30,080 nucleotides of DNA from Candidatus Eiseniibacteriota bacterium. Lineage in GTDB: Bacteria; Eisenbacteria; RBG-16-71-46. Both the position numbers and the translations under genes were made by a program. This document shows, in pieces, positions 2,620 through 24,134 of this stretch. How positions within the stretch are numbered: the first letter of the stretch is position 1; each line of letters opens with the position of its first letter. The DNA lies in NCBI GenBank assembly GCA_044222065.1, contig JBGAOA010000054.1:1-30080 (forward strand). The letters are read 5' to 3'. A model generated the notes under the pieces. That model was not told where the DNA came from. It saw only the letters and a list, made by a program, of their open reading frames with translations, and did no database searches.

Positions 2620-2656
2620 GCGCCGTCACCCGCAGCGACGAAACCGGGAGATCGCC

Positions 2657-3754
<1,098 letters not shown>

Positions 3755-7641: not shown

Positions 7642-10311
7642 TCAGCGCGCGCCGGCCGCGCGTTCGATCTTGAACACCTTGCCGCTCGTGCCCTCGAGCG
7701 CGATGCGCGCCTTGCCCGTCCACGTGGCCGTGGCACCCGTGAGGGCGTCCGTCGCCTTCACCGTGCCGCCGAACGGCGCGAGGTCGATCACGGACTCGCC
7801 CGGCATCGCCCCCGCGTTCATCGCGACGACGAACGTCTCCTGCGCGTCGCTGCGCTGGTACGCGTACACCATGCCGGTCGCATCGAGCGTGCGGAAATCG
7901 CCGGTGCGGAGCGAAGGATGCGCGTTCCGGAGCGCGCCGAGCCTGCGGTACCACTCGAGCGTCTCGACGCGCTTCGCGTCCTGCTCGTAGGTCCAGGGAA
8001 AAGGCCGGCGATTGTCGGGGTCCTCGCCGCCTTCGAGCGCGACCTCGTCGCCGTAGTAGATCGCGGGCGCGCCGACGTAGGTCATCTGGAACAGCGCCGC
8101 GAGCCGCAGGCGCTTCAGGTCCCCGCGCGCGCGCGTCACGTAGCGCGGCTTGTCGTGGCTGCTCACGAGGTTCATCTGCGTCTCGACCGCCTGCGTCGGG
8201 TAGGCGTTGCGCCCGGCGGCGAGCGTCGCGTCGAAGTCGCGCGCGGTCCCCTCGCCCTTGCACAGGAAGCGCTCGACGGGGAAGTAGCAGTACGCGTAGT
8301 TCATCACCGCGTCGTACACGCCCGGCCGCACGTAGTCGGTCGCGCTGCCCCACAGCTCGCCCATGATGTAGGCGTCGGGCTTCGCGGACTTGACGCGCTG
8401 GTTGAAGAGCTTCCAGAACCAGTACGGCACCTCGTTCGGCACGTCGAGGCGCAGGCCGTCCACGTCGGCGTCCTTGAGCCAGTACGTCGTCGCGTCGAGC
8501 AGGTAGTTCACGAGCGCGATGTTCGGCACGGCGTCCTTCACGTCGCGCACCGGGATCTCGGCCTTGTCGTCGCGCGACAGGTCGTAGTTCAGGTCGGGCA
8601 GGTCGCCGAAGCCCCACCAGCACGCGTAGTAGTCGCCCGGCTTCCACGGACTCCCGACGTTCGGCCAGCCCGCGGGCAGCGGCCAGCGCTTGAAGTCGAA
8701 CCAGTCGTAGTACGGGCTCTGCTTGCCCTTCTCGACCGCGTCCTTGAACGCCCAGTGCGAGTTCCCGCAATGGTTGTAGACGATGTCGAGGATGACGCGG
8801 ATGCCCTTCGCGTGCGCCTCCTTCACGAACGCGATGAACTCCTCGTTCGTGCCGAAGTGCGGGTCGATCTTGCGGAAGTCCGCGGCGTCGTACTTGTGCG
8901 TGCTCTTGGCCTCGAAGATCGGGTTGAAGTAGATCGCCGAGACGCCGAGCGATTTCAGGTAATCGAGCTTCTCGCGCACGCCGGCAATGTCGCCGCCGTA
9001 GAACGCCATCCAGTCGCGGCCGCCGGGCGTCCACGCGCACTGCGACAGCGCCGCGGCGTCGTTCCAGTCCTCGACGACGTGGTAGTACTCGGTGACCTCG
9101 GGATTGATGCGCGTGCCGGGCGCCGGGGCCGTGTGCTTGCCCTCGTAGTACCACTCGTGGAAATCCTGGTCGTTCGCGGGATTCCCGTTGCGGAACCGGT
9201 CCGGGAAGATCTGGTAGATGATCGCGTTCTTCACCCACTCCGGCGTTTCGAAGGCGGGGAAGCGCTCGGGCGAGTAGGTGAACTTGCCCGCCGCGGCCTC
9301 GGTGAAGCCCGCCGGACCGAGCCACAGCGTCTTCGCGCCGTCGCGGTAGCGGAACGCGTACGGCGTCTCGCCCGCGGGCAGCGTCACGAGCGCGCGGTAG
9401 TACACGAACGCGAGGTCCTCGTTCGCGGCGCGCATCGGCGTCACCCGCTCGGCGCCGTTCGTCCACGTGACGAGGTCCACGCCCTGCACGTCGTTCTGGT
9501 GCGCGCGCGCGGTGAACTCGACGCGCCCGCCGCCCATCGCATTCACCTCGTTCGCGCCCTGCGTGTGATCGAGGCCGTCCGGGAACACCTTGCCGTCCCC
9601 GACCTTCACGGCGATCTGCGGGTAGCGCGCGTCCACGTTGCGCAGCGAGTTCTTGCCGCCGTAGCCGTCGTCCACCTCGCCGTCCTGCCCCTGGCGGTCC
9701 TGCGTCCAGCCCGTGCCGTTCACGACGAACTTGTAGGGGTAGGAGCCGGGAGCGAGCAGCAGCGTCACGGTCCAGTTGCCGTCGCCGTCGGAATCCGACA
9801 TCGGCGTCTTCGTGGTGGACCAGTCGTTGAACGCCCCCGCGAGCGCGAGCGACTGCGCCTTCGTGTCCGGCCGGTACTTGAACGTCACCTGCCGGAGCCC
9901 GAGCGGTTCGCTCGACGCCGGCTTCTTCACGACGTTCGAGCCGGCCCCGGCCACGAGCGGCTTGTCCTTGATCTCGAGCACGGCGTTCTTGCCGCCGAAG
10001 CCGTCGTCCTCGGACGCGGCCGCGGACTCGTCCGTGAACCACTGGTCGCCGTTCACGACGAACTTGTACGTGACCTTGCCCTGCGGCAGGTCGAGCACGA
10101 GTTCCCACGTGCCGTCCTTGTCCGCGTCGGCGAGCGGGTTCGCCGCCTTGTCCCAGCCGTTGAAGCTCCCGGCGACGGCGACGCTCGAGACGCCTCCGAT
10201 CACGGGGACGTAGCGGAACGTGACCTTCGTCGCGTGGGCGGGGGCGGCGCCGAGCGCCGCCGCGAGCGCGAGCGCCGCGCCGAGATGCGCGAGTCGCGAA
10301 ATGGAGTTCAT
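7642..10311 (-). CDS. Exported GH13 alpha-amylase/neopullulanase-cyclomaltodextrinase-like enzyme with two N-terminal CBM48/AMPK-type modules, about 889 aa
   Basis: Signal peptide (ALAAALGAAPAHA). GH13 regions IYQIFPDRF, GGDIAGV, HKYD, LDIVYNH, DGLRLDVPNEV (nucleophile Asp), IMGELW (acid/base Glu), SSHDKPR and GAPAIYYGDE. The GAGGA RBS favours ATG 10311. Confidence 0.93.
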   Translation of the reverse strand: MNSISRLAHLGAALALAAALGAAPAHATKVTFRYVPVIGGVSSVAVAGSFNGWDKAANPLADADKDGTWELVLDLPQGKVTYKFVVNGDQWFTDESAAASEDDGFGGKNAVLEIKDKPLVAGAGSNVVKKPASSEPLGLRQVTFKYRPDTKAQSLALAGAFNDWSTTKTPMSDSDGDGNWTVTLLLAPGSYPYKFVVNGTGWTQDRQGQDGEVDDGYGGKNSLRNVDARYPQIAVKVGDGKVFPDGLDHTQGANEVNAMGGGRVEFTARAHQNDVQGVDLVTWTNGAERVTPMRAANEDLAFVYYRALVTLPAGETPYAFRYRDGAKTLWLGPAGFTEAAAGKFTYSPERFPAFETPEWVKNAIIYQIFPDRFRNGNPANDQDFHEWYYEGKHTAPAPGTRINPEVTEYYHVVEDWNDAAALSQCAWTPGGRDWMAFYGGDIAGVREKLDYLKSLGVSAIYFNPIFEAKSTHKYDAADFRKIDPHFGTNEEFIAFVKEAHAKGIRVILDIVYNHCGNSHWAFKDAVEKGKQSPYYDWFDFKRWPLPAGWPNVGSPWKPGDYYACWWGFGDLPDLNYDLSRDDKAEIPVRDVKDAVPNIALVNYLLDATTYWLKDADVDGLRLDVPNEVPYWFWKLFNQRVKSAKPDAYIMGELWGSATDYVRPGVYDAVMNYAYCYFPVERFLCKGEGTARDFDATLAAGRNAYPTQAVETQMNLVSSHDKPRYVTRARGDLKRLRLAALFQMTYVGAPAIYYGDEVALEGGEDPDNRRPFPWTYEQDAKRVETLEWYRRLGALRNAHPSLRTGDFRTLDATGMVYAYQRSDAQETFVVAMNAGAMPGESVIDLAPFGGTVKATDALTGATATWTGKARIALEGTSGKVFKIERAAGAR

Positions 10312-10325
10312 GGGCACCGGTCCTC

Positions 10326-10346
10326 GCGCGGCTCAGGGAGCCGCGC
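10326..10346. other. Perfect 9-bp hairpin next to the RBS of the GH13 gene
   Basis: GCGCGGCTC-AGG-GAGCCGCGC. Confidence 0.4.
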
Positions 10347-10388
10347 ACGTCGGGTGAGCGGACGGCGCGGGACGCGCCGCCCGGAACG

Positions 10389-11474
10389 TCAGGGAACGAC
10401 GAGAATCGAGTTCGTGCCGCCGAAGCCGTCGTCCTTCGTGGATGGATTCGCGGTATCGCTCGTCCAGCGACGGCCGTCCACGAGGAACTTGTAGGCGAAC
10501 GTTCCGGCGCCGAGCTTCTTCGTGATCGTCCACGTGCCGTCGGCCTGGCGCGTCATCGGATCGGCGGTCGTGGACCAGGCGTTGAAGTCGCCCGCGAGCA
10601 CGACGCTCGTCGCCGCACCGGCGAACGTGAAGCGCACGCCGTCGGCTCCGATCGCGGGCGGCGCGGCCTTGCCCGTGACGGCGACGGGTGCGGCGGTCGG
10701 GGCCGGCGTCGCGGCCGCCGCGCTCGACGCGCCGCCCGCGACCGTGACGACCGAGTTCTTGCCGCCGTAGCCGTCGTCCTTGTCGGACGGATTCGCGGAG
10801 TCGGTCTTCCAGTTCGTGCCGTCCACGACGAACTTGTAGGCGTACGTGCCGGGCGCGAGCGGCTTCACGATCGTCCACGTGCCGTCCGCCTGCTTCGTCA
10901 TCGGGTCGGCCGACGCGGACCAGGTGTTGAACGCGCCGGCGAGCGCGACGCTGCTCGCCGCGCCGGCGTAAGCGAAGCGCACGCCGTCCGCGCCCGCCTG
11001 CGGTCCGCCGGCCTTCGCGGGCGCGGACGCGGCCGGTGCGGCGGCGGCTGGAGCGGCCGCGGAGCCGATCACCACGATCGAGTTCTTGCCGCCGTAGCCG
11101 TCGTCCGTGTCCGTCGGGTTCGCGGAGTCGGTCTTCCAGTTCGTGCCGTCGATCACGAACTTGTAGGCGTAGCGGCCGGCCGCGAGCTTCTTCGTGAGCG
11201 TCCACGTGCCGTCCGACGTCGAGCCGAGCGGATCCGTGGTCGCGTTCCAGCTGTTGAACTCGCCGGCGACGTTCACGCGCGAGGCGGTGCCGCGGTAGAC
11301 GAACGTCACCTCGTCGCCCGAGACGTGGGTCGCGTTCTTCGAATCGGCGGCCGGGGCCGCGGCGGCCGAAGCCGCGGGTTCGCCCGGAGGCGCGCCGTTC
11401 CGCCAGCCGCCGGCGCAGCCCGCGAGCGCGAGCAGGGTGGAGGCGATCGAGACGAGACGCGTGGCGAGCTTCAT
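10389..11474 (-). CDS. Non-catalytic lipoprotein with three tandem CBM48/AMPK-type glycogen-binding modules, 361 aa
   Basis: The ATG overlaps the upstream stop (ATGA). Lipobox LAGC. Three repeats of VxxAGxFNxW...DP...DGTW...GxYAYKFVVDG..W..D..NP...DDG[YF]GG.NS separated by Ala/Pro linkers. Confidence 0.88.
   Translation of the reverse strand: MKLATRLVSIASTLLALAGCAGGWRNGAPPGEPAASAAAAPAADSKNATHVSGDEVTFVYRGTASRVNVAGEFNSWNATTDPLGSTSDGTWTLTKKLAAGRYAYKFVIDGTNWKTDSANPTDTDDGYGGKNSIVVIGSAAAPAAAAPAASAPAKAGGPQAGADGVRFAYAGAASSVALAGAFNTWSASADPMTKQADGTWTIVKPLAPGTYAYKFVVDGTNWKTDSANPSDKDDGYGGKNSVVTVAGGASSAAAATPAPTAAPVAVTGKAAPPAIGADGVRFTFAGAATSVVLAGDFNAWSTTADPMTRQADGTWTITKKLGAGTFAYKFLVDGRRWTSDTANPSTKDDGFGGTNSILVVP
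10752..11150. repeat. Intragenic duplication of CBM modules (327-bp offset)
   Basis: An identical 28-mer at 10752-10779 and 11079-11106, and an identical 32-mer at 10792-10823 and 11119-11150. Confidence 0.85.
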
Positions 11475-13111
11475 GGACGGGATCTCCTCCAGACGGGCCG
11501 CGACAGGCCGGGCGCGGGCACCGATTCGACCGAGAACGTGAGGCGGCGCTCGTCGAGCCGGAACCGGTAGTTGCCGGACGACGGGATCTGGACCTTGAGC
11601 GCCGTGCCGATGCCGGAGACGAGCCGCGTGTCGGCGTTCGTGACCGGCGCGACGATCGTGACGCTCTCGTCGCCGCCGTAGTCGGTGGGATTGTCGAACG
11701 AACCGTCGGTGACGAACTTCAGGTTGTAGGTGCCCGCGGCGATCGGGTGCGACGGCGCGTACTCCCACACCGCGAGCGCCACGAGCGACATCTGCGTCGA
11801 GTCGGCGAGCGTGAAGCCGTTGAAGTCGCCCGCGACGTGCAGGTTGCTCGAGAGTTCGTTGATGTCGGCGGCGAGCGTCACGTCCTGCGTCACGACGCTC
11901 GTGCCGACCGTCACGTCCATCGAGTCGCGCGCGAACTGCCACGCGTCCCAGCGCAGCCGGTAGGTGCCGGCGGGAAGCGACGAGAACGAGTAGGTGTTCG
12001 TGAACTTGTCCGTGACCGTCTCGCCGACCTTCGTCGCGCCCTGGAAGAGCTGCAGCGTCGTCGGCGGCCACGGCGCGCTCGCGAGGTCGGGGTGGATCGT
12101 GGGGTCCCACGCGAGCGTGCCCTGCACGCCGCCGGTCTGCGGTCCGCTCGAGACGAACGACGCCGCGATCGTGTGATTCGCCGCGACCGAGTTGAACGTG
12201 TAGCTCGTCACGGCGCCGACCGAGACCCCGTCCACGAGCACGTCGTCCACGGCGAATCCGAAATCCGGCGTGATCGTGAAGGGCTTGTTCTCGCCGCTGA
12301 ACACCGTGACGGCGCCGCTCGGGGCGATCGTGCCGCCGGCGCCCGCGCTCGCCGTGATCGCGAACGTGACCATGCCGATCGTGCCGAGGTTCGCGCCCGT
12401 GCCGCCGACCGTGACGTTCGTGAACGTGCGCGAGCCCGCGGCCGAGCGCACGAGCACGTTGTACGTGCCCGGCACGAGGTTCGCGATCGCGAACGATCCG
12501 TCCACCGTGCTCGTGTACGCGGCGTCCGACGTGCTGCCGATCGGGACGAATCCGTACGGCGCGGGCGAGGCGGTCTCGTCGAGCGTGCAGAGCAGCGGTC
12601 CGGCTTCGGCCGCGCCCACGTTCGCGACGATGTTCCCGTCCGGGCCGGCCGCTCCGAGCACGGCCTCGCCGACGAGGCCGTCCACCTGTCCGCCGGGCTT
12701 GCCGTAGTCGGGCGGATTGTCGAACGCGCCGTTCGTGACGAACTTCCATTCGAACGTGCCCGAGGGCACGGAAGTCGTGTCCACCCAGAAGCCGGGCGCG
12801 AGCTGCGTGAGGCGCGGCGACTGCGCGATGTTGAATCCGGTCGGCGTGCCCACGACCTGGATCGTCGTGAACGACGAGTGGAAGCTCGCGTTCTTGACGC
12901 GCGCGATCATCACGAGCGAGCGCGGGAACGTGCCGGGCGTTCCGAAGTCGAGCTTGCCCGAGATCACGCCGATCGCCGGCTGCGGCAGCTCGCCCGTGGG
13001 CGCGAGCAGCGTGCGGTTCGAGTTCGGGTCGCACGCGCCCGCGGCGAGCGCGAGCGCCGCGAGCGCGGGCGGGAGGGCGGAGCGGCGGAAGCGGCGAAGG
13101 AGGGCGTTCAT
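11471..13111 (-). CDS. Multidomain lipoprotein with two related CBM-like beta-sandwich modules (SusE/F-like architecture), Ig-like spacers and an InlB-B-like repeat, 546 aa
   Basis: Lipobox AGAC. Internal repeat GTFEWKFVTNGAFDNPPDYG / GTYNLKFVTDGSFDNPTDYG; LHVAGDFNGF; ITASAGAGGTIAPSGAVTV...VLVDGVSVGAVTSYTF repeat. No catalytic motif recognised. Confidence 0.75.
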   Translation of the reverse strand: MNALLRRFRRSALPPALAALALAAGACDPNSNRTLLAPTGELPQPAIGVISGKLDFGTPGTFPRSLVMIARVKNASFHSSFTTIQVVGTPTGFNIAQSPRLTQLAPGFWVDTTSVPSGTFEWKFVTNGAFDNPPDYGKPGGQVDGLVGEAVLGAAGPDGNIVANVGAAEAGPLLCTLDETASPAPYGFVPIGSTSDAAYTSTVDGSFAIANLVPGTYNVLVRSAAGSRTFTNVTVGGTGANLGTIGMVTFAITASAGAGGTIAPSGAVTVFSGENKPFTITPDFGFAVDDVLVDGVSVGAVTSYTFNSVAANHTIAASFVSSGPQTGGVQGTLAWDPTIHPDLASAPWPPTTLQLFQGATKVGETVTDKFTNTYSFSSLPAGTYRLRWDAWQFARDSMDVTVGTSVVTQDVTLAADINELSSNLHVAGDFNGFTLADSTQMSLVALAVWEYAPSHPIAAGTYNLKFVTDGSFDNPTDYGGDESVTIVAPVTNADTRLVSGIGTALKVQIPSSGNYRFRLDERRLTFSVESVPAPGLSRPVWRRSRP

Positions 13112-13513
13112 CTATCTCACCACGATGAGCGAGTTGAAACCGCCGAAGCCGTCGTCCACTCGCTGCGGGTTGTTGGGGTCTTCCTTCCACGTGACCTGGT
13201 CCACGACGTACTTGTACTGCCAGCGCCCGGCCGGAATCGGCACCGTCAGCTCCCAGATGCCGTCGCCGTCGAGATCGCGCATCTGCCCGATCAGGAAGCC
13301 GCCCGTCTGCGCCTGGCCGCGCAGCCAGTCGTTCTCGGGCCACGAGCCCGCGAGCTGCACGATCTTCGCCGAGCGCGATTCGAACCGGAACGTCACGCCC
13401 GCGGCCGACTGGGTCGGCGGCGGCAGGCGCTTCTTGATGAAGCCCATGCTGCTGCAGCCGCCCGCGGCGAGCACCGCGAGCGCGAGGAGCGGAAGCAGGA
13501 TCGAGCGTCGCAT
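13112..13513 (-). CDS. Small lipoprotein with a single CBM48/AMPK-type glycogen-binding module, 133 aa
   Basis: GGAGG RBS, MRRSILL...LAAGGC lipobox, VQLAGSW, GDGIWELTV, WQYKYVVD and VDDGFGGFNS. Confidence 0.85.
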   Translation of the reverse strand: MRRSILLPLLALAVLAAGGCSSMGFIKKRLPPPTQSAAGVTFRFESRSAKIVQLAGSWPENDWLRGQAQTGGFLIGQMRDLDGDGIWELTVPIPAGRWQYKYVVDQVTWKEDPNNPQRVDDGFGGFNSLIVVR

Positions 13514-13524
13514 TCGGGGCCTCC

Positions 13525-15678
13525 CTAGAACGTCACGATGCCGCGCAGCTGGATCCCGCGGTAGTCGCGCAGCGCGCGCTCCGCCGAGGCGATCGCCGCG
13601 CCGAGGCCGAAGTAGTCGTTCTGCGCCGTGACGGCGTTCGCGTCGAGGCCGAACAGGAACGCATCGCGGCCGATGCGCGTGTCCTCGTCCACGCCGAGCT
13701 TGTAGACGACGTTCGGATCGAGCCCGTAGCCGAGCGCGAACGTGATGCCGGGGCCGAACGTGTACTGGAGCTGGGTGTAGTTGCAGGCGTAGCCCGAGTG
13801 GAGCTGGAGCACCGGGTCGTCGTACTTCGCCCAGCGCGTGTCGCTCGTGAGCCGCGTGCGCGAGTTCACGTCGAGCCCGACGACGAACACGTTCTCGGCG
13901 TACTTGGGGAGCTTCGAGAGCGAGCGCAGGTCGTACGTTCCGCGCCACGCGAACTTCACGTTGCGCCGTCGCGCGACCGGCACTTCGAGCGACGGCCGCA
14001 CGGTCAGGACGTCGTCGCCGCCGAGCAGCGTCAGGCGGTCGAAGCTCACGACGTGCTCGCCGTGCTCGAGCCAGAAGTTGCCGTCGGGGAACCACAGCTG
14101 GTAGCTCCACGGCGTGCTGGCGTCGTAGTCGAAGTCGGTGCGCTCGATCGCGAGCCCGGTCTTGACCTCGCGGTTCAGGTAGTAGCGCCAGTTGCGGTCC
14201 CACGACAGCCGCCAGACGGTCATCGCGTTCTCGAGGCCGTCCTGCACGATCTCGTAGTCGTGGGTCTCGCGCTGGACGCTCGCGGCGACGCGGATGTCGC
14301 CGTGCGACTCGGTCCACGCGCCGCCGAGGTGGAAGCGCGTGCTGTGGTCGAGGTCGTGGTCGCGCGCGGCCGCGTTCGAAGGCTCGAGCGCCCCGACGCC
14401 GGTGATGCCGGTCGAGTCGAGCGTGGCGTCGGCCTCCGCCGACAGCACGGTCGTGACCGCGTTGAGGCGCCTCACGCCGCCGAGCAGCTCGGCGTGCGCT
14501 TCGAATCCGTGCGGCGCGTTCCAGTGCAGCTCGCCGCCGGCGCCCCACCACTCCTGGTCGTAGTTGCCGCTCGTGACGGAGAACCGGGTCGGCCCGACCG
14601 GCTCGATGAAGGCCGCCGACGTGAGATCGAAGCCGCGGTCGTTGCGCGCGAGCACGCCCGCCGTGACGCCGTGGCCGTGCGCGCGGCGCACTCGCATCGC
14701 GAACGTGTTTTCGTTCGCGTCCGAGACGACGGTATTCCGGTTGTAGGCGAGCGCGCCGGGCGCGAACACGTACTGCGTGCCGTCCCAGCGCGTCGCGATC
14801 GACGTGGGGCCGATCGTCGTCGTCACGCCCGGGTAGCTCGTCGCGCCGGTGCGGAAGTTGTCGGCGTAGTGGATCTCGGTGTCGAAGCCGAGCTTCTGCG
14901 ACGTGATCTTGAATCCCTGCCGGTCGTAGCCGAAGCGGTAGCCGTAGATGCCGACCGTGCCGAGCAGGTGGAGCGGGTCGTCCCAGCGGTCCACGCCCTC
15001 GTTGTCGTAGGCGAGGATCGTGAGGCGGTTGCCGCGGAACTCGATCCAGCCGCGCTCGAGCTCGAGCGGGCTCTGGAACAGCTGGTTCGTGCCGGTCGCG
15101 CGCGGCTGGGTGCTCAGCAGCACGCGCGCCTTCATGACGTCCGAGATCCGCACGTCGAGGTTCAGGCCGATGTCGAACTGGGGCGACTGCAGCTCGAAGC
15201 GCTTCGCGTCGGCGTTGCGCACGAGGCGGTAGTCACCGACCGCGCGGCCGCCCATGAGGATCTTCGGGCTGTAGGCCGTGTTCGACGTCGCCTGCATCGC
15301 CGTCGCGACCAGGTTCCCGTCCGCGCCGACGACGACGAAGCTGTTGCCGAAGTCGCCGCGCGTGACCGGGTTCTCGGGATCGGCGGTCCAGGTGCCGTCC
15401 ACGACGAACTTGTACTCGTGCTCGCCCGGCGGCAGCGCGACGACGACGCTCCACACGCCGCCCTCGCCCTTGCGGAGCGGATTCGCGCTCGGGTTCCAGC
15501 CGTTGAACACGCCCGCCCAGCTGACGGACTTCGCGTTCGGGTCGAGGTACGTGAAGCGGATGCCGCCCGCCGTGCGCTCGGGCGCGGCCGCGGCCGCCGA
15601 CGCGACGGCACAGACGAGGAGCGCGGCGAGCGCGAACGCGCGGCGCGAGGCGCGGAAGAGGGTCGGAAGGTCGGTCAT
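13525..15678 (-). CDS. Putative outer-membrane beta-barrel with an N-terminal CBM48/AMPK-type module, 717 aa
   Basis: Signal peptide; CBM module (VSWAGVFNGWNP...GEHEYKFVVDGTWTADPEN); amphipathic aromatic-rich beta-strands; C-terminal beta-signal-like GIQLRGIVTF. Confidence 0.75.
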   Translation of the reverse strand: MTDLPTLFRASRRAFALAALLVCAVASAAAAAPERTAGGIRFTYLDPNAKSVSWAGVFNGWNPSANPLRKGEGGVWSVVVALPPGEHEYKFVVDGTWTADPENPVTRGDFGNSFVVVGADGNLVATAMQATSNTAYSPKILMGGRAVGDYRLVRNADAKRFELQSPQFDIGLNLDVRISDVMKARVLLSTQPRATGTNQLFQSPLELERGWIEFRGNRLTILAYDNEGVDRWDDPLHLLGTVGIYGYRFGYDRQGFKITSQKLGFDTEIHYADNFRTGATSYPGVTTTIGPTSIATRWDGTQYVFAPGALAYNRNTVVSDANENTFAMRVRRAHGHGVTAGVLARNDRGFDLTSAAFIEPVGPTRFSVTSGNYDQEWWGAGGELHWNAPHGFEAHAELLGGVRRLNAVTTVLSAEADATLDSTGITGVGALEPSNAAARDHDLDHSTRFHLGGAWTESHGDIRVAASVQRETHDYEIVQDGLENAMTVWRLSWDRNWRYYLNREVKTGLAIERTDFDYDASTPWSYQLWFPDGNFWLEHGEHVVSFDRLTLLGGDDVLTVRPSLEVPVARRRNVKFAWRGTYDLRSLSKLPKYAENVFVVGLDVNSRTRLTSDTRWAKYDDPVLQLHSGYACNYTQLQYTFGPGITFALGYGLDPNVVYKLGVDEDTRIGRDAFLFGLDANAVTAQNDYFGLGAAIASAERALRDYRGIQLRGIVTF

Positions 15679-15708
15679 CGTCGGCTCCGGGGCGCGCGAA
15701 GCGGCCCG

Positions 15709-17238
15709 CTAGAAGTTGCCCTTCAGGATGAACTTGATCATGTCGAACTGGTCGCCGCTGCCCTCGAGGTCGCCGTCGTCCACCGGCGTGGCGGAGTCGC
15801 CGATCCACCCGGGGCCGTACTCGAGGAACATCACGACGTTCGGGCTCGGGTAGTACTGCAGCTGGCTGAAGATGCCCTTGCGCAGCCGGTTCGGGTCGTT
15901 CCCGAACGTGTAGCGGTTGTACGTCTTGATCTTGTCCGTCAGGTTGATGCGGGTCTCGAGCGAGTAGAGCTGCTTGCGCGTCGGCTGGCCGACGTCCTTC
16001 ACCTTGCTCTGCACGCGCATCCACGCGAGCCGGCTCTCGACCTGCAGCTCGTTGAACCAGTCGTCGTGCTCCTCGAGGCTGAAGCGCGAACCGACCGTGA
16101 AGCGGCGGATGTCCTTCTGCCGGAAGTACGTCTTGCCCGTGAAGCCGTTCACGAACTCGACGTAGGCCTCGTTGTAGAACTCGACGTCCTCGCGCCGCTC
16201 GTAGGCGTTCTTCGACCAGCGCCCGTAGTTCGACGTGAGCGTGACGGCGCGGTCCGGGAGCAGGTACCAGCTGTTGATGCGGTAGCCGATCTCGTCGCGG
16301 TTCGCGTCGCCCGTGCGGTTCTCGAAGCGCGGTCCGCGGCGCCAGTAGAACGGCGCGACGTTCAGGTAGCCGAGCTTCGGCGTGCCCACGTGGAGCGAGC
16401 GGATCTCGGCGACGAGCACGCCGCGGTCGGGGAGGTGCAGCCCGGTCGGCCAGCGGAACAGCGACAGGTTGCGGCCGAGCGCCTCGGGGAACGCGTAGTC
16501 CGAGCGCGGCGAGGTGTTGAGCGGCGCGGTGCTCTGCGCGTACTCGAGCGAGAAATCCACGTCGCGGTAGTTGAATCGCGAGTCGAACGCCACGACCTCG
16601 GAGCGCTCGGGCACCGCGCCCGCGCGCCGGTCCTCCTTGCGCGCGAACGTCGTCCCGAGCCGCAGGCGCTTCTGCAGGAACTCGCGCTTGAGCCGCGCCG
16701 CGTACACGCCCGCGACGTCGTCGCTCGCGATCGCCTGCCCGTTCGCGCCGAGGTAGCCCCAGCTCTCGAGCCTCAGCCCCTGCGCGTTCGGGCCGAAGAA
16801 GTCGCGCTTCAGCACGTCGCTCTTCACGACCTCGATCAGGTACTTCTCGATGTAGAAACGGTCCTGGCGCGAGAACAGGTAGCTGTCCACGCCGCGCGTG
16901 CCCTGGTCCCAGCGGAAGCGCACGTGCGACTCGCGGAACTGCACCTGCGGGCGCGAGCCGCTGTTGTACGTGGGGTTCCAGTCGGTCTCGAACTTCATGA
17001 ACGCTTCGACGCCCGCGCGCGGCTGCGAAAAGATCCGCAGCTGCGCGTTGTTGAAGTTGTCGCTGTTGTTGCTGTCGAAGTCCCACGGGTAGTTGCGCTG
17101 CTGCGTGGACTTCCGCATGTCCAGCATGAGCTGGTACTCGCCCTCGATCTTCGTGAGCGCGAACGCCGGCGCGGCGAGCGCGAGGGCGAACGCGGCGAGC
17201 GCGAGCGGCGCGGCCCCGGCGGTGCGGCGGACGGTCAC
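15709..17238 (-). CDS. Putative outer-membrane beta-barrel protein of unknown family, 509 aa
   Basis: The GTG overlaps the upstream stop (GTGA). Signal peptide ending AAPAFA; alternating-pattern beta-strands; C-terminal MIKFILKGNF ending in Phe. Confidence 0.75.
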   Translation of the reverse strand: MTVRRTAGAAPLALAAFALALAAPAFALTKIEGEYQLMLDMRKSTQQRNYPWDFDSNNSDNFNNAQLRIFSQPRAGVEAFMKFETDWNPTYNSGSRPQVQFRESHVRFRWDQGTRGVDSYLFSRQDRFYIEKYLIEVVKSDVLKRDFFGPNAQGLRLESWGYLGANGQAIASDDVAGVYAARLKREFLQKRLRLGTTFARKEDRRAGAVPERSEVVAFDSRFNYRDVDFSLEYAQSTAPLNTSPRSDYAFPEALGRNLSLFRWPTGLHLPDRGVLVAEIRSLHVGTPKLGYLNVAPFYWRRGPRFENRTGDANRDEIGYRINSWYLLPDRAVTLTSNYGRWSKNAYERREDVEFYNEAYVEFVNGFTGKTYFRQKDIRRFTVGSRFSLEEHDDWFNELQVESRLAWMRVQSKVKDVGQPTRKQLYSLETRINLTDKIKTYNRYTFGNDPNRLRKGIFSQLQYYPSPNVVMFLEYGPGWIGDSATPVDDGDLEGSGDQFDMIKFILKGNF

Positions 17239-18185
17239 GGCTGCGCCCTCCGCCCGGTCCAGTGGAGCCCGGCGCGGTAGGAGGCGCCGAGCGTCGGGTG
17301 CGTCGAGACCGCGCCGTCCACTTCCCAGCCGCGATGGCGCACGCCGATGCCGCCCGTGAAGTCGAACTCGGAGGCGCCGTTGAGCGTGGTCGCGTCCACG
17401 ACGCCCTGCAGGTGAGTGAAGCCCGAGCGCAGCGCGAAAACGTCGTAGAACCAGATCTCGACGCCGCCGTTGATCGTGCCCTCGCCGGTGCGTTCCGACT
17501 GCGTCCAGCCGAGGTTCACGGTGGACTGCGGGTTCCAGCGGTAGGCCGCGGTGAGTTCCTGAAGGCGCGGCAGGCGGAACGCCCCGCCGCCGTCCACGAC
17601 GTCGAGTTCGGAGCCGATCAGGTTGCGGCTCACCCACGCGAAGTCCACGTTCCACGGCGTCGTCCAGCGCGCGCCGAGGTCCGAGTCGAACGCGGACGCC
17701 GAGCCGTAGTCGACGGCCGCTCCGGTCGCGGGATCGGCGAAGCTCGAGAAGCCGGCGCGCTGGAGCTTGAGCGAGAGCCCCAGCTCGAGCGCGTGGCCGC
17801 GGCGGGGCAGCGTGAAACGCCGGCCGCCCGCGAGCGCGAACAGGTCCTCCGCGAACGCGCCGCTCACGCCGAGCCGGTGCCAGCCGAGCGCGAGTCCGGT
17901 CTCGCGCCAGCGGCCCGCGACGGACAGCGCGCTCTCGGTCAGGTCGGGGACGCCGTAGGGCGAGGAGACGTCGAGCAGCGCCTCGCGCGTCGTCACGCCC
18001 GCGAGCGCCGCGGGATTCCAGTACCACGCGCCGGGCCCGCGGATCGTCGCGCCCGCGGCGCCGCCCATCGCGAGCGCGCGGGCGTCCACGCGCGTCTCCT
18101 CGAAGTAGGCGTCGGCGGGACGCGCGAGCGCCGCGCACGCGATCGCCGCGAGCAGCGTCGCGATGCGCCGGACGCCGGCGTTCAT
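17235..18185 (-). CDS. PorV/PorQ/PorP-like (FadL-fold) outer-membrane barrel, 316 aa
   Basis: ATGA overlap with the upstream gene; signal peptide; N-terminal DARALAMGGA...YWNPAALA motif typical of PorV/FadL-like barrels; GVEIWFYDVFALRSG near the C-terminus. Confidence 0.72.
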   Translation of the reverse strand: MNAGVRRIATLLAAIACAALARPADAYFEETRVDARALAMGGAAGATIRGPGAWYWNPAALAGVTTREALLDVSSPYGVPDLTESALSVAGRWRETGLALGWHRLGVSGAFAEDLFALAGGRRFTLPRRGHALELGLSLKLQRAGFSSFADPATGAAVDYGSASAFDSDLGARWTTPWNVDFAWVSRNLIGSELDVVDGGGAFRLPRLQELTAAYRWNPQSTVNLGWTQSERTGEGTINGGVEIWFYDVFALRSGFTHLQGVVDATTLNGASEFDFTGGIGVRHRGWEVDGAVSTHPTLGASYRAGLHWTGRRAQP

Positions 18186-19492
18186 CGCGCGACCACCACG
18201 GGGCGGGTGAGGCGACCCGTCGTTCCGGTGTTCGACTCGAGCACGACCGACAGGATGTAGATCCCGGCGTCGACGATGCGTCCCGCGTCGTCGCGTCCGT
18301 CCCAGCGCGCCTCGGGCAGGTAGGAGGCGAGCGACCCGTTCGCCTGGTCGACCGGATTGCTCGAGTAAGTGTTGGAGCCGACCTGCTTCAAGGACAGCTT
18401 GCGCACGAGGCGGCCTCGCACGTCGAAGATCGAGGTGTCGAGGCCGCGGCCGCTGCGGCACGGGTCCGAGAACGCGGGATCGTCGCGGCGCTTGAAGCGC
18501 ACGCAGAAGTTGGCGGTCTCGCCGCGGTCGGGCGCGAACGCGGGCCGGAGCCAGCGCAGCTCCGCGAGCTCGGCGGGGCGCGCCTCGACCGGCGGATCGA
18601 TGCGGAACGACACGCGCGGCTTCACGTCCACGTTCCAGTCGGCGATGCCGTCCGGGCCTCCGCCGCCGAGGCCGGTGTCGTCCCGGCGGTCGAGGTCGAT
18701 GACCGCGTAGTTGTCGAGGAACACCTCGAGGCTGCCGTCCGACGACAGGCCGTTCGAGTTGTCGGGCGCGCAGTCGGGGCCGCCGGTGTTGTCGCCGCCG
18801 GAGGTGATCACCGCGGCGAGCTTGAGGCGCGCCCCGCGCGGGATGCGCCGCAGCGTGTCGGTGCGGCCGGCCACCGTCATGACGGTGTCGCGCGTGCCGA
18901 AGCCCTCGCTCCCGAGGAACAGGGTGTTCCACGGGATCTTGAACTCCATCGCGCGTCCGCGCTGGTTCGTCGAAAACGTGGCGGCCGCTTCGAACAGCGC
19001 GCCCGGCTGGTTGTCCGTCACCTGCAGTCCGCCGAGCTGGCCGCCCTGGTGGACGATGAGCCGCGGGAGCGTGTTCGTGTCCCACGTCGCGCCGAACAGG
19101 TCGGGGTTCAGGCTGTCGGCGTCGAACGAGAAGTTGCGCGACCACGAGTTGAGGTTGCGCATCGTCGTGAGGCCCTGGCCCGGCAGCGGGTCGAGCAGGA
19201 TCACGAGGTTGTTGCCCCACGTCACCGCTTCGCCCGCGAGGTACAGGAACTGCGCGTCCCACGTCACTCGCAGGTTCCAGACGTCGTTGTCGGGGCCCCA
19301 CTTCGAATCGCTCGTGCTCTCTTCCGGGACGTTGCGCGGCCCGTTGAAGCCGAACACGGCCTCGTCGGCGGCGAAGTCGTTCGTGAAGCCGTCCACGGTG
19401 AAGCGCGCGGACAGGTCGCGCGCGGTCGAGCCGTGCGCGGCGGGCGCGAACAGTACGAGGAGGAGGAACGTGGGGAAGAGCCGGCGGCGCAC
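18182..19492 (-). CDS. Secreted protein with a DOMON/CBM9-like N-terminal domain and a FlgD-Ig/T9SS-like C-terminal sorting domain, 436 aa
   Basis: GGAG RBS then GTG 19492; signal peptide (RRRLFPTFLLLVLFAPAAHG); TVDG..DF...LRVTWDAQFLYLA; CTD AFAPDRGE...IFDVRGRLVRKL...WDGRDDAGRIVDAGIYIL. Confidence 0.75.
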   Translation of the reverse strand: MRRRLFPTFLLLVLFAPAAHGSTARDLSARFTVDGFTNDFAADEAVFGFNGPRNVPEESTSDSKWGPDNDVWNLRVTWDAQFLYLAGEAVTWGNNLVILLDPLPGQGLTTMRNLNSWSRNFSFDADSLNPDLFGATWDTNTLPRLIVHQGGQLGGLQVTDNQPGALFEAAATFSTNQRGRAMEFKIPWNTLFLGSEGFGTRDTVMTVAGRTDTLRRIPRGARLKLAAVITSGGDNTGGPDCAPDNSNGLSSDGSLEVFLDNYAVIDLDRRDDTGLGGGGPDGIADWNVDVKPRVSFRIDPPVEARPAELAELRWLRPAFAPDRGETANFCVRFKRRDDPAFSDPCRSGRGLDTSIFDVRGRLVRKLSLKQVGSNTYSSNPVDQANGSLASYLPEARWDGRDDAGRIVDAGIYILSVVLESNTGTTGRLTRPVVVAR

Positions 19493-19540: not shown

Positions 19541-19569
19541 ATGATGCCGGGCGCTTCGGGGAGGGTCAA
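19541..19569 (-). promoter_or_regulatory. Putative promoter of the leftward nine-gene operon
   Basis: Minus strand TTGACC (19569-19564), a 17-nt spacer, then CATCAT (19546-19541). Confidence 0.4.
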
Positions 19570-19620
19570 GGTTCGGGCCGCGCCGAGCGTCGGCGTCGCG
19601 CCGTCCGGCGCGGCGAGTGG

Positions 19621-19650
19621 TTGCCGCACCGCTCCGGCGGCACCTAGAAT
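19621..19650 (+). promoter_or_regulatory. Putative divergent promoter of the 19763 gene
   Basis: TTGCCG (19621-19626), an 18-nt spacer, then TAGAAT (19645-19650). Confidence 0.5.
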
Positions 19651-19762: not shown

Positions 19763-22288
19763 ATGACCCTCTGGAGACGACTCCTCGTTCCGGCCCTCGG
19801 ACTCGCCTTGCTCGCCGCGCCCGCATTCGGATACGTCGCGCAGACGATCGTCGTCGACGGCACGAACGACTTCGACCCCGCCAACACGGTCGAGGACGAC
19901 AGCATCGACACGCAGACCTTCTGTTCCCCCGCGGCCCTGCCGCTCGAGATCGGCAAGGTCTTCGTCACGAACGACGCGAACTTCCTCTACATCGGCATCG
20001 AACACGCGAAGACCTGCTTCTGCGACATGAACCTCGGCGTCGCGATCGAGGTGGGCGGCACGGTCGCGGGCGGAACCTCGGACCCGTTCAGCCGCAAGAT
20101 CGGGTGGTCGTCGCTCACGAACCGTCCCGACTTCGTCGTCTACGACGTCACGCCGACGAACTGCAACACCTTCAACTACGAAGCGCTCTACCGGTGGAAC
20201 ACCGGCACGAGCGCGTGGGACAACGTCTCGACGCTCGTCAATCCCTCGTACGGCGGCGGCTCGAACGGTCTCGGCATCGGCGACGGCAACGACTTCAAGG
20301 AGATCCGCCTGCCGCTCTCGGTGCTCGGCGCGACCGCGGGCACGGCGCTCGGCCTCGAGGTGTGGGTGACGCAGGACGCCGCGACGAAGGGCCCGCTCGA
20401 CGCGATGTGCAGCGACAACGTGCAGATGTCGCGGGTCGGGCAGACGACGTTCGACACGACGGCCGTCGTCCAGATGACGTGCCTCGCGCCGTACACGGTG
20501 CTGAACGCGACGGATGCGCAGCCGCCGATCGTCTCGAGCGCGCTCGCGGTGAACTTCCCGCTGCTCGCGAACCGTCAGTTCGGGCTCAGCACGAACAAGA
20601 TCGACGTCACGTTCAGCGAGCCCGTGCAGCTCGCGACCGCGCAGACGGCCTCGAACTACACGATCAGCGGCGCCGCCTCGCCCCTCGTGATCCTCGCCCA
20701 GCGCGACGCGGTCGCGAACAACATCGTGCATCTCACGGTGTCGAGCTCGGTGTCGTCGAACGCGAACTTCTACAACGTGACCGTGAAGAACGTGCAGGAC
20801 GTGGCCGGGAACGCGATCGTGCAGAACGGCACGACGAACGTCGGCTCGTTCTTCATCCAGAACGCGACCTTTGAGGGCAATTTCAAGGTCGGGATGTGCA
20901 AGGGCATCTTCGCCCAGGCGGATACGTTCGCGGTCGAAGGCAACCTCGCGCCGCTGACGTTCGACCTGCGCGACAACGCGCTGATGTACGACGCGAACGT
21001 GGACTCGATCTGGACGGTCACGGTGCCGTTCGCGCTCGCGAAGAGCGGCGCGACCGCCGAGGCCGACCTCGCCTGGAAGTTCGGGCGCAAGACGTTCGTG
21101 AACCCGGGCTCGCTCGAGTTCGAGCCGCTGTCGCAGAACCGCGCGTACCACCTGAGCAGCGCGAACGGCGCGAACGTGACGCTCGCCGGCTTCTGGAACA
21201 ACGACGATCCGGCGAACTTCACGACGCACCCGGTGGACGTCGTCTTCCGCGTGAACGCCACGCTGCGGAACCCGACCGCCAGCGACACGCTGTCGCTCGC
21301 CGGCTCCGAATTCCCGCTCACGTTCACGCTGCCGGGCGCGCCGATGAAGGACGACGGCGTGTTCCCCGACGCCGTCGCCGGCGACAAGATCTACTCGGCG
21401 AAGGTGCGCTTCCCGTCGTGCGCGAGCCGCAACATCTCGTGGAAGGTCGGCGTGAACCACGCGTTCGAGTGCGCGGGGCAGGGCGACCGCACGTTCACGC
21501 TCAACGACGCCGGCGCCGACACGGTCGGCGGCACGCACGGACCGCAGACGCTCCCGGCGCGTGGAATCGACCGCTGCGACGTGACGGACAAGGCGATCAA
21601 GGTCGTCTTCCGCGTGGACGGCACGCTCATCTCGCCGGACCCCGCCGGCTCGGACACGATGGCCGTGATGGGCAACCGGGCGCCGCTGCAGTTCGACGTT
21701 CCGGCGACCGCGGCGCAGCGCATGTTCGACAACGGCGCCGGCGACGATGCGGTCGCGGGCGACCAGATCTTCACGCGCGCGATCGTGTTCCCCGACTCGA
21801 CGCCGTTCAACGTGGACTTCAAGTACCGGCTGTCGAGCTGGCCCACGAACAACGGCTTCGAGTGCGAAGGCTTCGGCAACCGCTCGCTCACGCTGAACGA
21901 CGTGACGTACTCGGTCGCGAATCCGCTCGTGCGCGTGCTGAGCGCGTGGAACTTCTGCACCGAGCCGCTCGCGGTGCCGATCGGGGACGCGCCGGTCGTC
22001 TCGAGCGCGAGCTTCGCCGTGATGCACCCCGGCTTCCCGGTGCCGTTCGCGAACCGCACGACGGTGCGCTTCGAGCTCAAGACGGCGGGGCGCGCGACGC
22101 TCAAGGTCTACGACGTCTCGGGCCGTTGCGTCGCCACGCTGCTCGATGGCGAGTTCGAGGCGGGCACGCGGACGGTCGCGTGGGACGGCCGCTCCGCGGC
22201 GGGCGCGCGGCTCGGCAGCGGCGTCTACCTCGCCGTGCTGTCGCGCGGCTCGGAACGCGTGGGCAGCCGGCTCGTGCTGACGCGCTGA
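19763..22288 (+). CDS. Large secreted multidomain protein (DOMON/CBM9-like, Ig-like, three CBM20-like modules with choice-of-anchor-X-like motifs, FlgD/T9SS-like CTD), 841 aa
   Basis: GGAG RBS; signal peptide ending AAPAFG; IVVDGTNDF...NDANFLYIGI; VTFSEPV...SNYTI Ig domain; repeats VVFRV...[AM]G...PL.F...MKDDGVFPDAVAGDKIY / MFDNGAGDDAVAGDQIF; CTD KVYDVSGRCVATL...WDGRSAAGARLGSGVYL. Confidence 0.8.
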   Translation: MTLWRRLLVPALGLALLAAPAFGYVAQTIVVDGTNDFDPANTVEDDSIDTQTFCSPAALPLEIGKVFVTNDANFLYIGIEHAKTCFCDMNLGVAIEVGGTVAGGTSDPFSRKIGWSSLTNRPDFVVYDVTPTNCNTFNYEALYRWNTGTSAWDNVSTLVNPSYGGGSNGLGIGDGNDFKEIRLPLSVLGATAGTALGLEVWVTQDAATKGPLDAMCSDNVQMSRVGQTTFDTTAVVQMTCLAPYTVLNATDAQPPIVSSALAVNFPLLANRQFGLSTNKIDVTFSEPVQLATAQTASNYTISGAASPLVILAQRDAVANNIVHLTVSSSVSSNANFYNVTVKNVQDVAGNAIVQNGTTNVGSFFIQNATFEGNFKVGMCKGIFAQADTFAVEGNLAPLTFDLRDNALMYDANVDSIWTVTVPFALAKSGATAEADLAWKFGRKTFVNPGSLEFEPLSQNRAYHLSSANGANVTLAGFWNNDDPANFTTHPVDVVFRVNATLRNPTASDTLSLAGSEFPLTFTLPGAPMKDDGVFPDAVAGDKIYSAKVRFPSCASRNISWKVGVNHAFECAGQGDRTFTLNDAGADTVGGTHGPQTLPARGIDRCDVTDKAIKVVFRVDGTLISPDPAGSDTMAVMGNRAPLQFDVPATAAQRMFDNGAGDDAVAGDQIFTRAIVFPDSTPFNVDFKYRLSSWPTNNGFECEGFGNRSLTLNDVTYSVANPLVRVLSAWNFCTEPLAVPIGDAPVVSSASFAVMHPGFPVPFANRTTVRFELKTAGRATLKVYDVSGRCVATLLDGEFEAGTRTVAWDGRSAAGARLGSGVYLAVLSRGSERVGSRLVLTR

Positions 22289-22414: not shown

Positions 22415-23161
22415 CTAGCGGTACAGCGTCTTCAGCTCGCCCCAGCTTCGCGCCTTCGTCGGCGTCGGGTTCCCGACCGTCACGCGCGCACGGCCGGTGC
22501 ACTGGTCGAACTCGAACAGCACGTCGCTGTTCGCCATCGTCGTCGTGTACGCGAGGTTCGCTCCGCACGGCGCGGCGGCGCCCTCGCTGCCAATGTTGCA
22601 CACGTCCCACGTGCCGGTCGCGCGGAACTTCGCCTCGTAGCTGCCCGGCGCGGCCACGTTGACCGTCTTCGACCACACGCAGCCCGTCAGCGACGCGGCC
22701 ACGCCCGACGTCCAGCCGCCCGTCTCGGGCGCGCCGCCGATGACTTCGAACGTCGTGCCCGGAGGCGCGAAGTGATCGCTCCAGACGATGTTGCTCGCCG
22801 GCAGCCAGCCGTCCGAGTACGTGTTGCGATCGAGCGTGAACTTCACCGGGTCACCGGGGCCCGCGATGTGCACCCACAGGTTGCACCACGGGTAGTAGCT
22901 CTCGGACCAGTCCGCGAGCGCGATCTTGAACTCCTTGCGGCCGCCGGCCTGGTCGGCGACGACCGTGCCCGCGAACACGAGGTCGCCCGCGGCGCCGTCG
23001 CCGTGGAGACCGTCGTCGAACATCTCGTTCCCGCCGTCGTTGTTCCAGCAGCCGGGGCCGCAGTAGTAGTCGCCCTTGGCGAACCACGGTCCGGCGATGG
23101 CCGTGCCGACGAGCGCGGCCGTGGCGATGACGGTGAGGAGCGCAGTCGCTGTCTTCTTCAT
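22415..23161 (-). CDS. Secreted 248-aa Cys/Trp-rich protein with CBM-like modules and a C-terminal SWGxxKxxYR motif
   Basis: GGAGGA RBS; signal peptide MKKTATALL...AIA; MFDDGLHGDGAAGDLVF motif; paired segments KEFKIALADW / YEAKFRATGTW; ends PTPTKARSWGELKTLYR. Confidence 0.82.
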   Translation of the reverse strand: MKKTATALLTVIATAALVGTAIAGPWFAKGDYYCGPGCWNNDGGNEMFDDGLHGDGAAGDLVFAGTVVADQAGGRKEFKIALADWSESYYPWCNLWVHIAGPGDPVKFTLDRNTYSDGWLPASNIVWSDHFAPPGTTFEVIGGAPETGGWTSGVAASLTGCVWSKTVNVAAPGSYEAKFRATGTWDVCNIGSEGAAAPCGANLAYTTTMANSDVLFEFDQCTGRARVTVGNPTPTKARSWGELKTLYR

Positions 23162-23291: not shown

Positions 23292-24134
23292 TCAGGACTT
23301 CACGCCCCCGAGCGACAGCCCCTCGACGAGCCAGCGGTTGAGCGCCACGAACAGCACCATGACCGGCACGCAGACGAGCAGGGATCCGGCCGCGTAGTTC
23401 GCCCACTCGGTCTGAAACGTGCCCGCGAGGCTCTCGAGGCCGAGGGGCAGCGTGTACAGCTCGGCGCGGCTCAGCACGATGCGGGCGACGAGGAACTCGG
23501 ACCACGCCGCCATGAACGAGAACAGCGCGGTGATCGCGAGCGCCGGCGAGGCGAGCGGCAGCGTGACCCGCACGAACGCGGTCCACGGGCCGCAGCCGTC
23601 GATGAGCGCCGCCTGTTCGAGCTCGACCGGGATCGTGTCGTAGTAGCCGCGCAGGGTCCACACGCAGAACGGCAGCGCCGTCGTCGTGTACGCGAGCACG
23701 AGCCCGAAGTAGGAGTTGAGGAGGCCGAGTTCCTTCATGAGCACGTAGAGCGGCAGCATGAGCATCGTGGGCGGGAACATCTGCGTGAGCAGGAACGAGT
23801 AGAGCCCGGCGCGCGAGCCCGGGAAGCGGAAACGCGAGAACGCGTAGCCGGCGGTCGAGGCGAGCGTGACGCCGAACACCGTGGTCGCGAGCGACACGAC
23901 GAACGAGTTCAGGAGCCAGCGCAGGAACGGCTTCTCGAACAGCATCACGCGGTACGCGGTGAACGTGGCGTGCTCGGGGACGATCGCGAGCGAGGTCGAG
24001 TAGAGCTGGTCGGAGGGCCGCAGCGAGACCGTGAAGATCTGCAGGATCGGGTAGACGGTCGCGAGCGCGAAGAACGCAAGGAACACGTGCGTGAGCACGC
24101 GCCCGGGCGTCCAGCGGTCGGCGCGGCCGCTCAC
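23292..24134 (-). CDS. malG: Carbohydrate ABC transporter permease (MalG-like), 280 aa
   Basis: The GTG overlaps the upstream stop. AGYAFSRFRFPG, TQMFP, EAA loop IPVELEQAALIDGC, FMAAWSEF. Confidence 0.9.
   Translation of the reverse strand: MSGRADRWTPGRVLTHVFLAFFALATVYPILQIFTVSLRPSDQLYSTSLAIVPEHATFTAYRVMLFEKPFLRWLLNSFVVSLATTVFGVTLASTAGYAFSRFRFPGSRAGLYSFLLTQMFPPTMLMLPLYVLMKELGLLNSYFGLVLAYTTTALPFCVWTLRGYYDTIPVELEQAALIDGCGPWTAFVRVTLPLASPALAITALFSFMAAWSEFLVARIVLSRAELYTLPLGLESLAGTFQTEWANYAAGSLLVCVPVMVLFVALNRWLVEGLSLGGVKS

Follow-up and report, generated by a model that had tools for sequence, protein, structure and literature searches.

The DNA analysed here (the window) is a stretch of 30,080 nucleotides, the whole of contig C99 from the 4.2 Mb genome (72 % GC, 94 % complete) of a Candidatus Eiseniibacteriota bacterium; the close homologues of its proteins mostly carry the name Ca. 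Eisenbacteria. On its reverse strand lie two adjacent genes, A and B, which the original prediction had described as a tandem pair of unassigned, duplicated outer-membrane β-barrels that might form a glucan channel. Both are intact open reading frames separated by 30 nt; A starts with a GTG codon in a 4-nt overlap with the stop codon of the upstream gene, and the codon bias of the B frame is of the coding type (G+C at third codon positions 0.97). The two proteins begin with a hydrophobic, signal-peptide-like stretch (judged by eye) and end in Phe, as had been noted. No family was matched by A in Pfam or NCBIfam scans, and the sole match for B in the same scans was a CBM48/AMPK1_CBM module at its N-terminus, which scored 43 bits against PF02922 (curated cut-off 22.4) and 54 bits against PF16561. 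Residues W61, W76 and W97 of this module are kept in 98–100 % of 70 aligned rows, so that the tryptophan pair of CBM48 is present. Because the module, which lies at residues of about 36–115 and goes unmentioned in the original prediction, scores above the Pfam cut-off, B is not wholly unassigned; that description holds for A and for the barrel of B.

Paralogy of A and B and the invariant five-gene unit

Comparison of A with B as single sequences by BLASTP was not significant (E 0.06), and profiles of close homologues gave only a weak score of 39 %; both comparisons were too shallow to detect the relationship. A profile search of 1.84 billion representatives yielded 172 relatives of A. When 88 of these were included in the A profile, hhalign scored it at 93.9 % against B, and when the B alignment was also deepened the score rose to 97.4 % (E 1.5e-11 over 207 columns). 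The N-terminal halves aligned with each other at E 4.6e-11 and the C-terminal halves at E 1.4e-4, whereas all controls (cross-half, reversed, three column-shuffled, TonB-barrel and PorV-barrel) gave E > 0.04. The significant mutual similarity of the two profiles supports A and B as diverged paralogues, as had been proposed from sequence, and the two pairs of segments originally put forward as alignable both fall in well-aligned parts, the first being recovered by hhalign and the second by BLASTP and hhalign. Strands 1–11 of A correspond to strands 1–11 of B, and strands 21–24 of A to strands 19–22 of B, so that the proteins differ by one hairpin gained or lost between these blocks; the extra hairpin lies in the ambiguous middle. 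With the B-barrel profile, none of 147 representatives from the A profile search reached more than 10 bits, and there is thus no direct A–B intermediate among them. A Pfam scan of 84 distant A homologues found no barrel family. One of these homologues (P0335, Elusimicrobiota, 698 aa) has a CsgG-like domain fused before the barrel at its N-terminus, which indicates that barrels of this family can be joined to periplasmic modules of other kinds; the most distant A subgroup (alignment A5) includes members from Krumholzibacteria.

The two-gene unit of the original prediction proved too small, the invariant unit being one of five genes. Their order is g6, which encodes a protein with a type IX secretion system (T9SS) tail, a gene for a PorV-like barrel, A, B and g10, which encodes a CBM48 lipoprotein. 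The operon begins with g6, divergent from the gene at 19763, and from the start of the core to the GH13 gene the successive gaps are −4, −4, 30, 11, 0, −4 and 71 nt. Loci were counted from 75 named examples, each scored only where the contig left room. Beside A we found B at 69/69, the PorV-like gene at 68/68, g6 at 63/63 and g10 at 61/62 loci, and at the sole exception (L037) g10 was located on a separate reading. The order of the five genes was identical in all 60 complete loci, from Ca. Eisenbacteria and Cloacimonadota. Across 201 genomes of the phylum, A occurs in 59 and B in 59, with both in 58; in 56 of these 58 the genes are adjacent on one contig and strand, and in the other two they are split by contig ends. 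In a second phylum, that of a Ca. Cloacimonadota genome, A and B occur in the same 21 of 151 genomes, a 22nd match in the B search being to CBM48 only and therefore not counted. This strict adjacency makes a complex of A and B, such as the hetero-oligomer suggested in the original prediction, likely. At one locus (L073 in genome G063, about 10001–13469) A and B are both in pieces, through frameshifts or assembly errors.

The partner genes have features of their own. The PorV-like protein matches NF033709 over residues 30–308 (E 1e-13) with 51.5 bits, whereas the curated cut-off is 90. The g10 lipoprotein has a conserved insertion and, past the lipobox Cys, a conserved basic tether with a charge of +2 to +4 in 59 of 63 parsed rows. 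Longer forms of g6 with Glucodextran_C domains occur in one clade: in a family of small genomes the g6 position is occupied by proteins of 680 and 1811 aa (L076, 12746–14788; L077, 11950–17385) with Glucodextran_C and Ig-like domains, and g10 of the same family has two CBM48 modules.

Several further analyses of the locus carry no weight in what follows. Mutual-information coevolution across the 60 five-gene loci gave inter-chain scores no different from intra-chain noise, the alignment being too shallow, and mirror-tree correlations of 0.79–0.96 are what shared ancestry would give and were left out of account. A promoter scan of the divergent gap (19541–19650) found two weak σ70-like sites against 0.4 expected and no terminators, and is not relied on. 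Three RNA runs from one sludge sample gave short contigs with a depth of 2–5 over the locus, including A, B and g10, which were not used as evidence because DNA carry-over is possible.

Predicted folds of A and B

AlphaFold2 models were built from 120 (A) and 110 (B) aligned homologues, and strands were counted from DSSP assignments. The A model (pLDDT 92.3, pTM 0.85) has 24 predicted membrane strands, the first directly at the start; the B model (pLDDT 88.6, pTM 0.78) has the CBM48 module, a low-confidence linker and 22 predicted strands, and in it the mature protein opens directly with the first strand of CBM48. As predictions, therefore, the models agree with the earlier proposal that both proteins are outer-membrane β-barrels. 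In both, short turns alternate with long loops in the pattern of such barrels, and from this alternation we infer that the CBM48 module of B would lie on the periplasmic side. Backbone radii calculated from geometry are about 21 Å for A and 19.5 Å for B, as against 16 Å for an 18-stranded barrel, so that by the models both would be wider than classical porins.

Structural comparison aligned A from end to end with the 24-stranded ushers PapC and FimD (Z 16–18, root-mean-square deviation (rmsd) 3.6–5.9, identity 7–10 %), and B from end to end with TonB-dependent barrels (Z 14–16, rmsd 5–11), including one SusC (Z about 16, rmsd 8–11 for this group). Maltoporin covered only residues 29–398 of A, that is, the first 18 strands (Z 14.0, rmsd 7.3). 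These matches track strand number and barely exceed those to unrelated barrels, so that no family is assigned by structure. The fold searches returned generic barrels only, with no close solved relative among the matches listed, a result which does not make the fold new, and sequence searches of the PDB with A, the B barrel and both profiles found CBM48 matches only and nothing for the barrels. No TonB-plug family was matched by A or B in Pfam, NCBIfam or PDB sequence searches; the earlier observation that neither protein has a TonB plug or LamB signature was borne out by these family and PDB searches.

Across 70 loci from both phyla, the conserved residues of A that face inward comprise 24 basic, 21 acidic and 14 aromatic positions spread over nearly all strands, and those of B comprise 9 basic, 5 acidic and 8 aromatic positions, inward facing being deduced from hydrophobic alternation and not from coordinates. 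Conserved Trp and Tyr residues of B also occur in one long loop and nearby strands, those in its long loops being W377, Y518, W524, W536 and Y619. Conserved aromatic residues thus exist in A and B, and might form an aromatic path of the kind seen in the greasy slide of LamB. Mean column conservation is 0.65 for g10, 0.65 for the CBM48 module of B, 0.53 for A and 0.46 for the B barrel.

Starch-use genes and the T9SS and TonB context

The genes around the core (Table 1) include those for a MalE-like binding protein, permeases and amylolytic functions.

Table 1. Positions of the core genes and of neighbouring features in the window
Feature	Position	Strand	Description
Core gene 1 (g6)	18182..19492	-	436 aa; signal peptide, unnamed β-rich domain, FlgD/T9SS-type C-terminal domain
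Core gene 2, PorV/PorQ-like barrel	17235..18185	-	316 aa; NF033709
Barrel A	15709..17238	-	509 aa; signal peptide, then predicted 24-stranded β-barrel without periplasmic domain; inward faces rich in conserved Arg/Lys/Glu/Asp
Barrel B	13525..15678	-	717 aa; signal peptide, CBM48, linker, predicted 22-stranded β-barrel
CBM48/AMPK1_CBM glycogen-binding module, N-terminus of B	15334..15573	-	residues about 36–115
Core gene 5 (g10)	13112..13513	-	133-aa lipoprotein with one CBM48-like domain
Accessory lipoprotein, X25-like and carboxypeptidase-regulatory-like domains	11471..13111	-	variable among loci
Accessory lipoprotein, three CBM48 modules	10389..11474	-	
Exported GH13 α-amylase-family enzyme, two N-terminal CBM48 modules	7642..10317	-	last gene of the run
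Solute-binding lipoprotein, maltose/maltodextrin-type (MalE-like)	25022..26263	-	
Two ABC permeases	23292..25015	-	MalF-like (24131–25015) and MalG-like (23292–24134)
Secreted 841-aa multi-domain protein	19763..22288	+	T9SS type A tail, choice-of-anchor X domains; divergent from the core operon
Secreted 248-aa protein	22415..23161	-	weak X25 match, choice-of-anchor X domain
Large secreted protein, FlgD/T9SS tail	26365..30078	-	cut by the contig end

The best PDB matches of the window MalE are maltose/maltodextrin-binding proteins, and a MalK-type ATP-binding cassette (ABC) ATPase with ABC_tran and OB_MalK domains, encoded at about 2650–3754 on the forward strand about 4 kb past the GH13 gene, probably completes the MalEFG importer. 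Of 206 genomes from the phylum, 66 have a MalE orthologue; these include all 60 A-bearing genomes, and A was found in none of the other 140. The six genomes with MalE and no A comprise one with part of B, four in which MalE lies on short contigs, and G043. LamB (PF02264) was not found in the genome itself or in 30 other carrier genomes, and SusD (PF07980) was not found in the genome itself, the other SusD families having been scanned against the window proteins only. Around the core, malEFG and the genes for GH13, GH57, GH77, phosphorylase and further CBM48/X25 lipoproteins vary in position among loci.

Some details of these neighbours are recorded here in their own right. In Cloacimonadota, the binding protein and the first permease are apparently fused into proteins of 730–780 aa (L061, 640–2928; L058, 3541–5883; L074, 3136–5415). 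For the large secreted protein truncated at the contig end, the homologue in L061 matches GH57 weakly. A membrane-protein-like frame with no Pfam match follows the GH13 gene (6119–7105, reverse strand). The secreted 248-aa protein has a short conserved motif right at its stop codon, an end pattern shared by 42 frames of the genome (counted with no chance control), which may be a lineage-specific sorting signal.

SprA is present in the genome, and likewise in 4/4 genomes checked; with an SprA of its own, the genome does not need A or B as a T9SS pore. TonB-type barrels (PF00593) number 16 in the genome, with none on the window contig. In four cassettes, C55 (30816–37576), C38 (26807–33803), C80 (10663–17674) and C84 (2605–9556), a TonB-dependent transporter is accompanied by a dedicated PorV-family gene and by a large protein whose tail is T9SS-like, an uptake layout without SusD. 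As a TonB transporter precedes the tailed and PorV-like genes at these four places, A and B would occupy the slot of the transporter in the starch block. A match to TonB_C lies within 10 kb of the block in one of 30 genomes, at L105 of G294, where two small TonB_C lipoproteins (13056–13962) are inserted in the starch locus 4 kb downstream.

Proposed function of the block and comparison with known systems

Starch fragments are known to enter Gram-negative bacteria by LamB-type porins or by TonB-dependent transporters of the SusC/MalA kind. Ca. Eisenbacteria, Cloacimonadota and their relatives have a maltodextrin ABC importer without LamB or SusD in the genomes searched, which makes the block an obvious candidate for the outer-membrane step. 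This context lends good support to a role for the block in handling α-glucans at the outer membrane, and import, all readings of that kind taken together, is the probable direction. The glucan channel of the original prediction accordingly gains support from context, namely the CBM48 module of B, the downstream CBM48 lipoproteins, the co-occurrence with MalE and the absence of LamB from those genomes.

From the observed gene order and MalE co-occurrence and the predicted folds, we propose, with about even confidence, that A and B work together as a gate for uptake of α-glucan (maltodextrin or glycogen fragments) that feeds MalEFG and is probably passive. In our working model the T9SS would export g6, which would retain its tail, be attached to the cell surface through the PorV-like barrel and bind glucan there; excerpts of PMC5562754 describe a precedent in Porphyromonas gingivalis, where PorZ retains its tail and PorQ anchors it. 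The polymer would then be cut by secreted amylolytic proteins, and the oligomers would pass through B along the conserved aromatic residues of its loops, to be caught by its periplasmic CBM48 module. In the weakest step of the model, A, which lacks a CBM48 module, would harbour g10 within its wide lumen or just beneath it; A with g10 might then amount to a split version of B in which a CBM48 module gates the pore. Downhill flow would be sustained by the periplasmic GH13 enzyme and the MalE/ABC sink and not by TonB. We thus infer that B may be the pore that guides the sugar, with a catcher of its own in the periplasm, and that A, which is usher-sized and may hold the g10 lipoprotein, may be a wider paralogue receiving CBM48 in trans. 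A more far-reaching version, which we consider doubtful, is that the five genes form one machine of a hitherto undescribed kind, in which three barrels would be combined with a surface lid delivered by the T9SS and with two CBM48 gates in the periplasm, and which would import large or branched α-glucans without TonB or SusD. Seating of g10 in A like the plug of an usher, with the block as a third outer-membrane route beside porins and TonB-dependent transporters, is similarly tentative.

Several observations weigh against A and B forming a passive uptake gate. TonB is encoded in 30/30 genomes tested, so that independence of TonB is not shown by its absence. All structural matches are generic, with Foldseek TM-scores of at most 0.5 and identities of 4–14 %, and A has loops of 22, 29, 35 and 25 residues with conserved positions which could themselves fill or close its lumen without a partner. 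The genome G043, which is 97 % complete, has malEFG and no A, with no block within 20 kb. Because related genomes are not independent, the counts overstate the association of A with MalE, which is a pattern and not a test. In addition, a distant clade of three long metagenome loci reached through alignment A4 (L096, L097 and L104), one member of which is named Latescibacterota, has the block without Mal or amylase genes within 7.5 kb on either side, between a pyruvate-phosphate-dikinase-like gene (judged by eye) and unrelated genes.

It is unlikely, in our view, that A, or A together with B, is instead a protein-handling barrel that serves g6 and the CBM48/X25 lipoproteins at the cell surface, by exporting, displaying or scaffolding them, with sugar entering through B alone or by another route. 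Ushers pass folded β-sandwich domains and are matched by A in size; the lumen of A, conserved all round with mixed charges, is closer to a protein interface than to a sugar slide, two to three lipoproteins are encoded downstream of the A/B pair, and the block persists without Mal genes in the clade just described. Nevertheless, SprA exists for tailed cargo, A lacks the soluble domains of an usher and the g10 tether is basic, whereas the surface-export signal of Bacteroidota lipoproteins is acidic, a rule that may not hold for the Eisenbacteria lineage. Nor do we think it at all likely that A and B are separate channels, as monomers or homo-oligomers, for glucans that differ in size or branching (linear as against branched or cyclic) and form no hetero-complex. 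In favour of this reading, they are paralogues that differ by one hairpin, and excerpts of a preprint (PMC12642598) report that in fructan uptake by Bacteroides the preferred chain length is tuned by the architecture of the transporter; however, neither A nor B was found alone in any intact locus, and if the two were independent an occasional single loss would be expected.

An energized, TonB-coupled transporter made of B, with CBM48 in place of the plug and A as a helper, would account for the N-terminal domain, the 22 strands and the end-to-end match of B to TonB-dependent barrels including SusC, and for the encoded TonB of all the genomes tested and the TonB_C lipoproteins of the G294 locus. 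We regard it as improbable: B matches neither PF00593 nor a plug family, hhalign against the TonB barrels of the same genome gave E 0.12, the mature protein begins directly with the first strand of CBM48, its homologue is the 24-stranded A, and a TonB_C match lies within 10 kb of the block in only one of the 30 genomes. Export or organization of a cell-made surface α-glucan, in the fashion of Wzi- or PgaA-type porins, appears highly improbable. It would be in keeping with the resemblance of A and B in language-model features to DUF6029, for which excerpts of PMC9603273 propose a possible role in polysaccharide secretion, and with the phosphorylase, GH77, GH57 branching enzyme or glycosyltransferase-like gene of some loci; but what constantly accompanies the block is an ABC importer with a maltodextrin-binding protein, the loci read, in what was not a systematic search, contained no recognizable synthase, Wzx/Wzy or OPX gene, and DUF6029 has no sequence match. 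If an uptake gate formed by A and B is the correct explanation, the block would represent a new barrel family with a carbohydrate-binding module serving as a pore gate, would tie the T9SS to nutrient import outside Bacteroidota, and would provide a marker for starch and glycogen use in uncultured bacteria of sludge and sediment.

Among known systems, maltoporin LamB and ScrY resemble the block in being outer-membrane barrels encoded with malEFG-type genes, and passive entry of maltodextrin is what we propose here. LamB, however, is an 18-stranded homotrimer, whereas A and B have 24 and 22 strands by model and no match to PF02264, and LamB systems are not known to have a fused CBM48 module or a T9SS-linked partner. 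With SusC/SusD/SusE/F/G and Caulobacter MalA the block shares the 22 strands of B, co-encoded glucan-binding lipoproteins and amylases, and the form of a multi-protein uptake unit; it differs in that A and B lack a plug and PF00593, no SusD (PF07980) was found in the genome, there is a second, wider paralogous barrel and a linked ABC importer with MalE, and the role of surface partner falls to a protein with a T9SS tail, which has a PorV-like barrel of its own. Fimbrial ushers such as PapC and FimD have 24 strands and give the best end-to-end structural match for A, a match owed to strand number. An usher has an inserted β-sandwich plug in its lumen and periplasmic N- and C-terminal domains; A has none of these and no usher Pfam match, and no chaperone or pilin genes lie nearby.

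Closer parallels to parts of the arrangement are found in excerpts of more recent work. The plug-less 'Type S' fructan transporters of Bacteroides are large, hollow barrels without plug or lid that import short glycans; they are TonB-barrel homologues by CATH/PANTHER, whereas A and B are not and are paired (excerpts of PMC12642598). The T9SS attachment pairs PorQ:PorZ and PorV:PorU likewise set a tailed secreted protein beside a PorV/PorQ-type barrel (excerpts of PMC5562754), although in our block such a pair goes together with genes for nutrient uptake and the PorV-like match falls below the curated cut-off. The cyclodextrin channel CymA and the chitoporin ChiP also conduct oligosaccharides passively, and an N-terminal element gates them, but they have smaller barrels and a short-peptide plug in place of a folded CBM48 module (excerpts of PMC5768706). 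By language-model features the nearest named cluster is DUF6029 (PF19494), at 0.96 for A and 0.94 for B, and the PF19494 hidden Markov model matched neither A, B nor the 84 distant A homologues. Membership of A and B in LamB, the TonB-dependent transporters, the ushers or DUF6029 was rejected, as the defining tests of each failed. Among the listed matches from the open-access literature, which excludes subscription papers and supplements, no description of the block was found, and the excerpts of PMC6851124 describe no such system. By analogy, the block would work most like LamB, letting glucans in passively upstream of MalE, while its accessory proteins follow the logic of Sus systems. We consider A and B to be a new barrel family in a new arrangement, performing a known kind of task.

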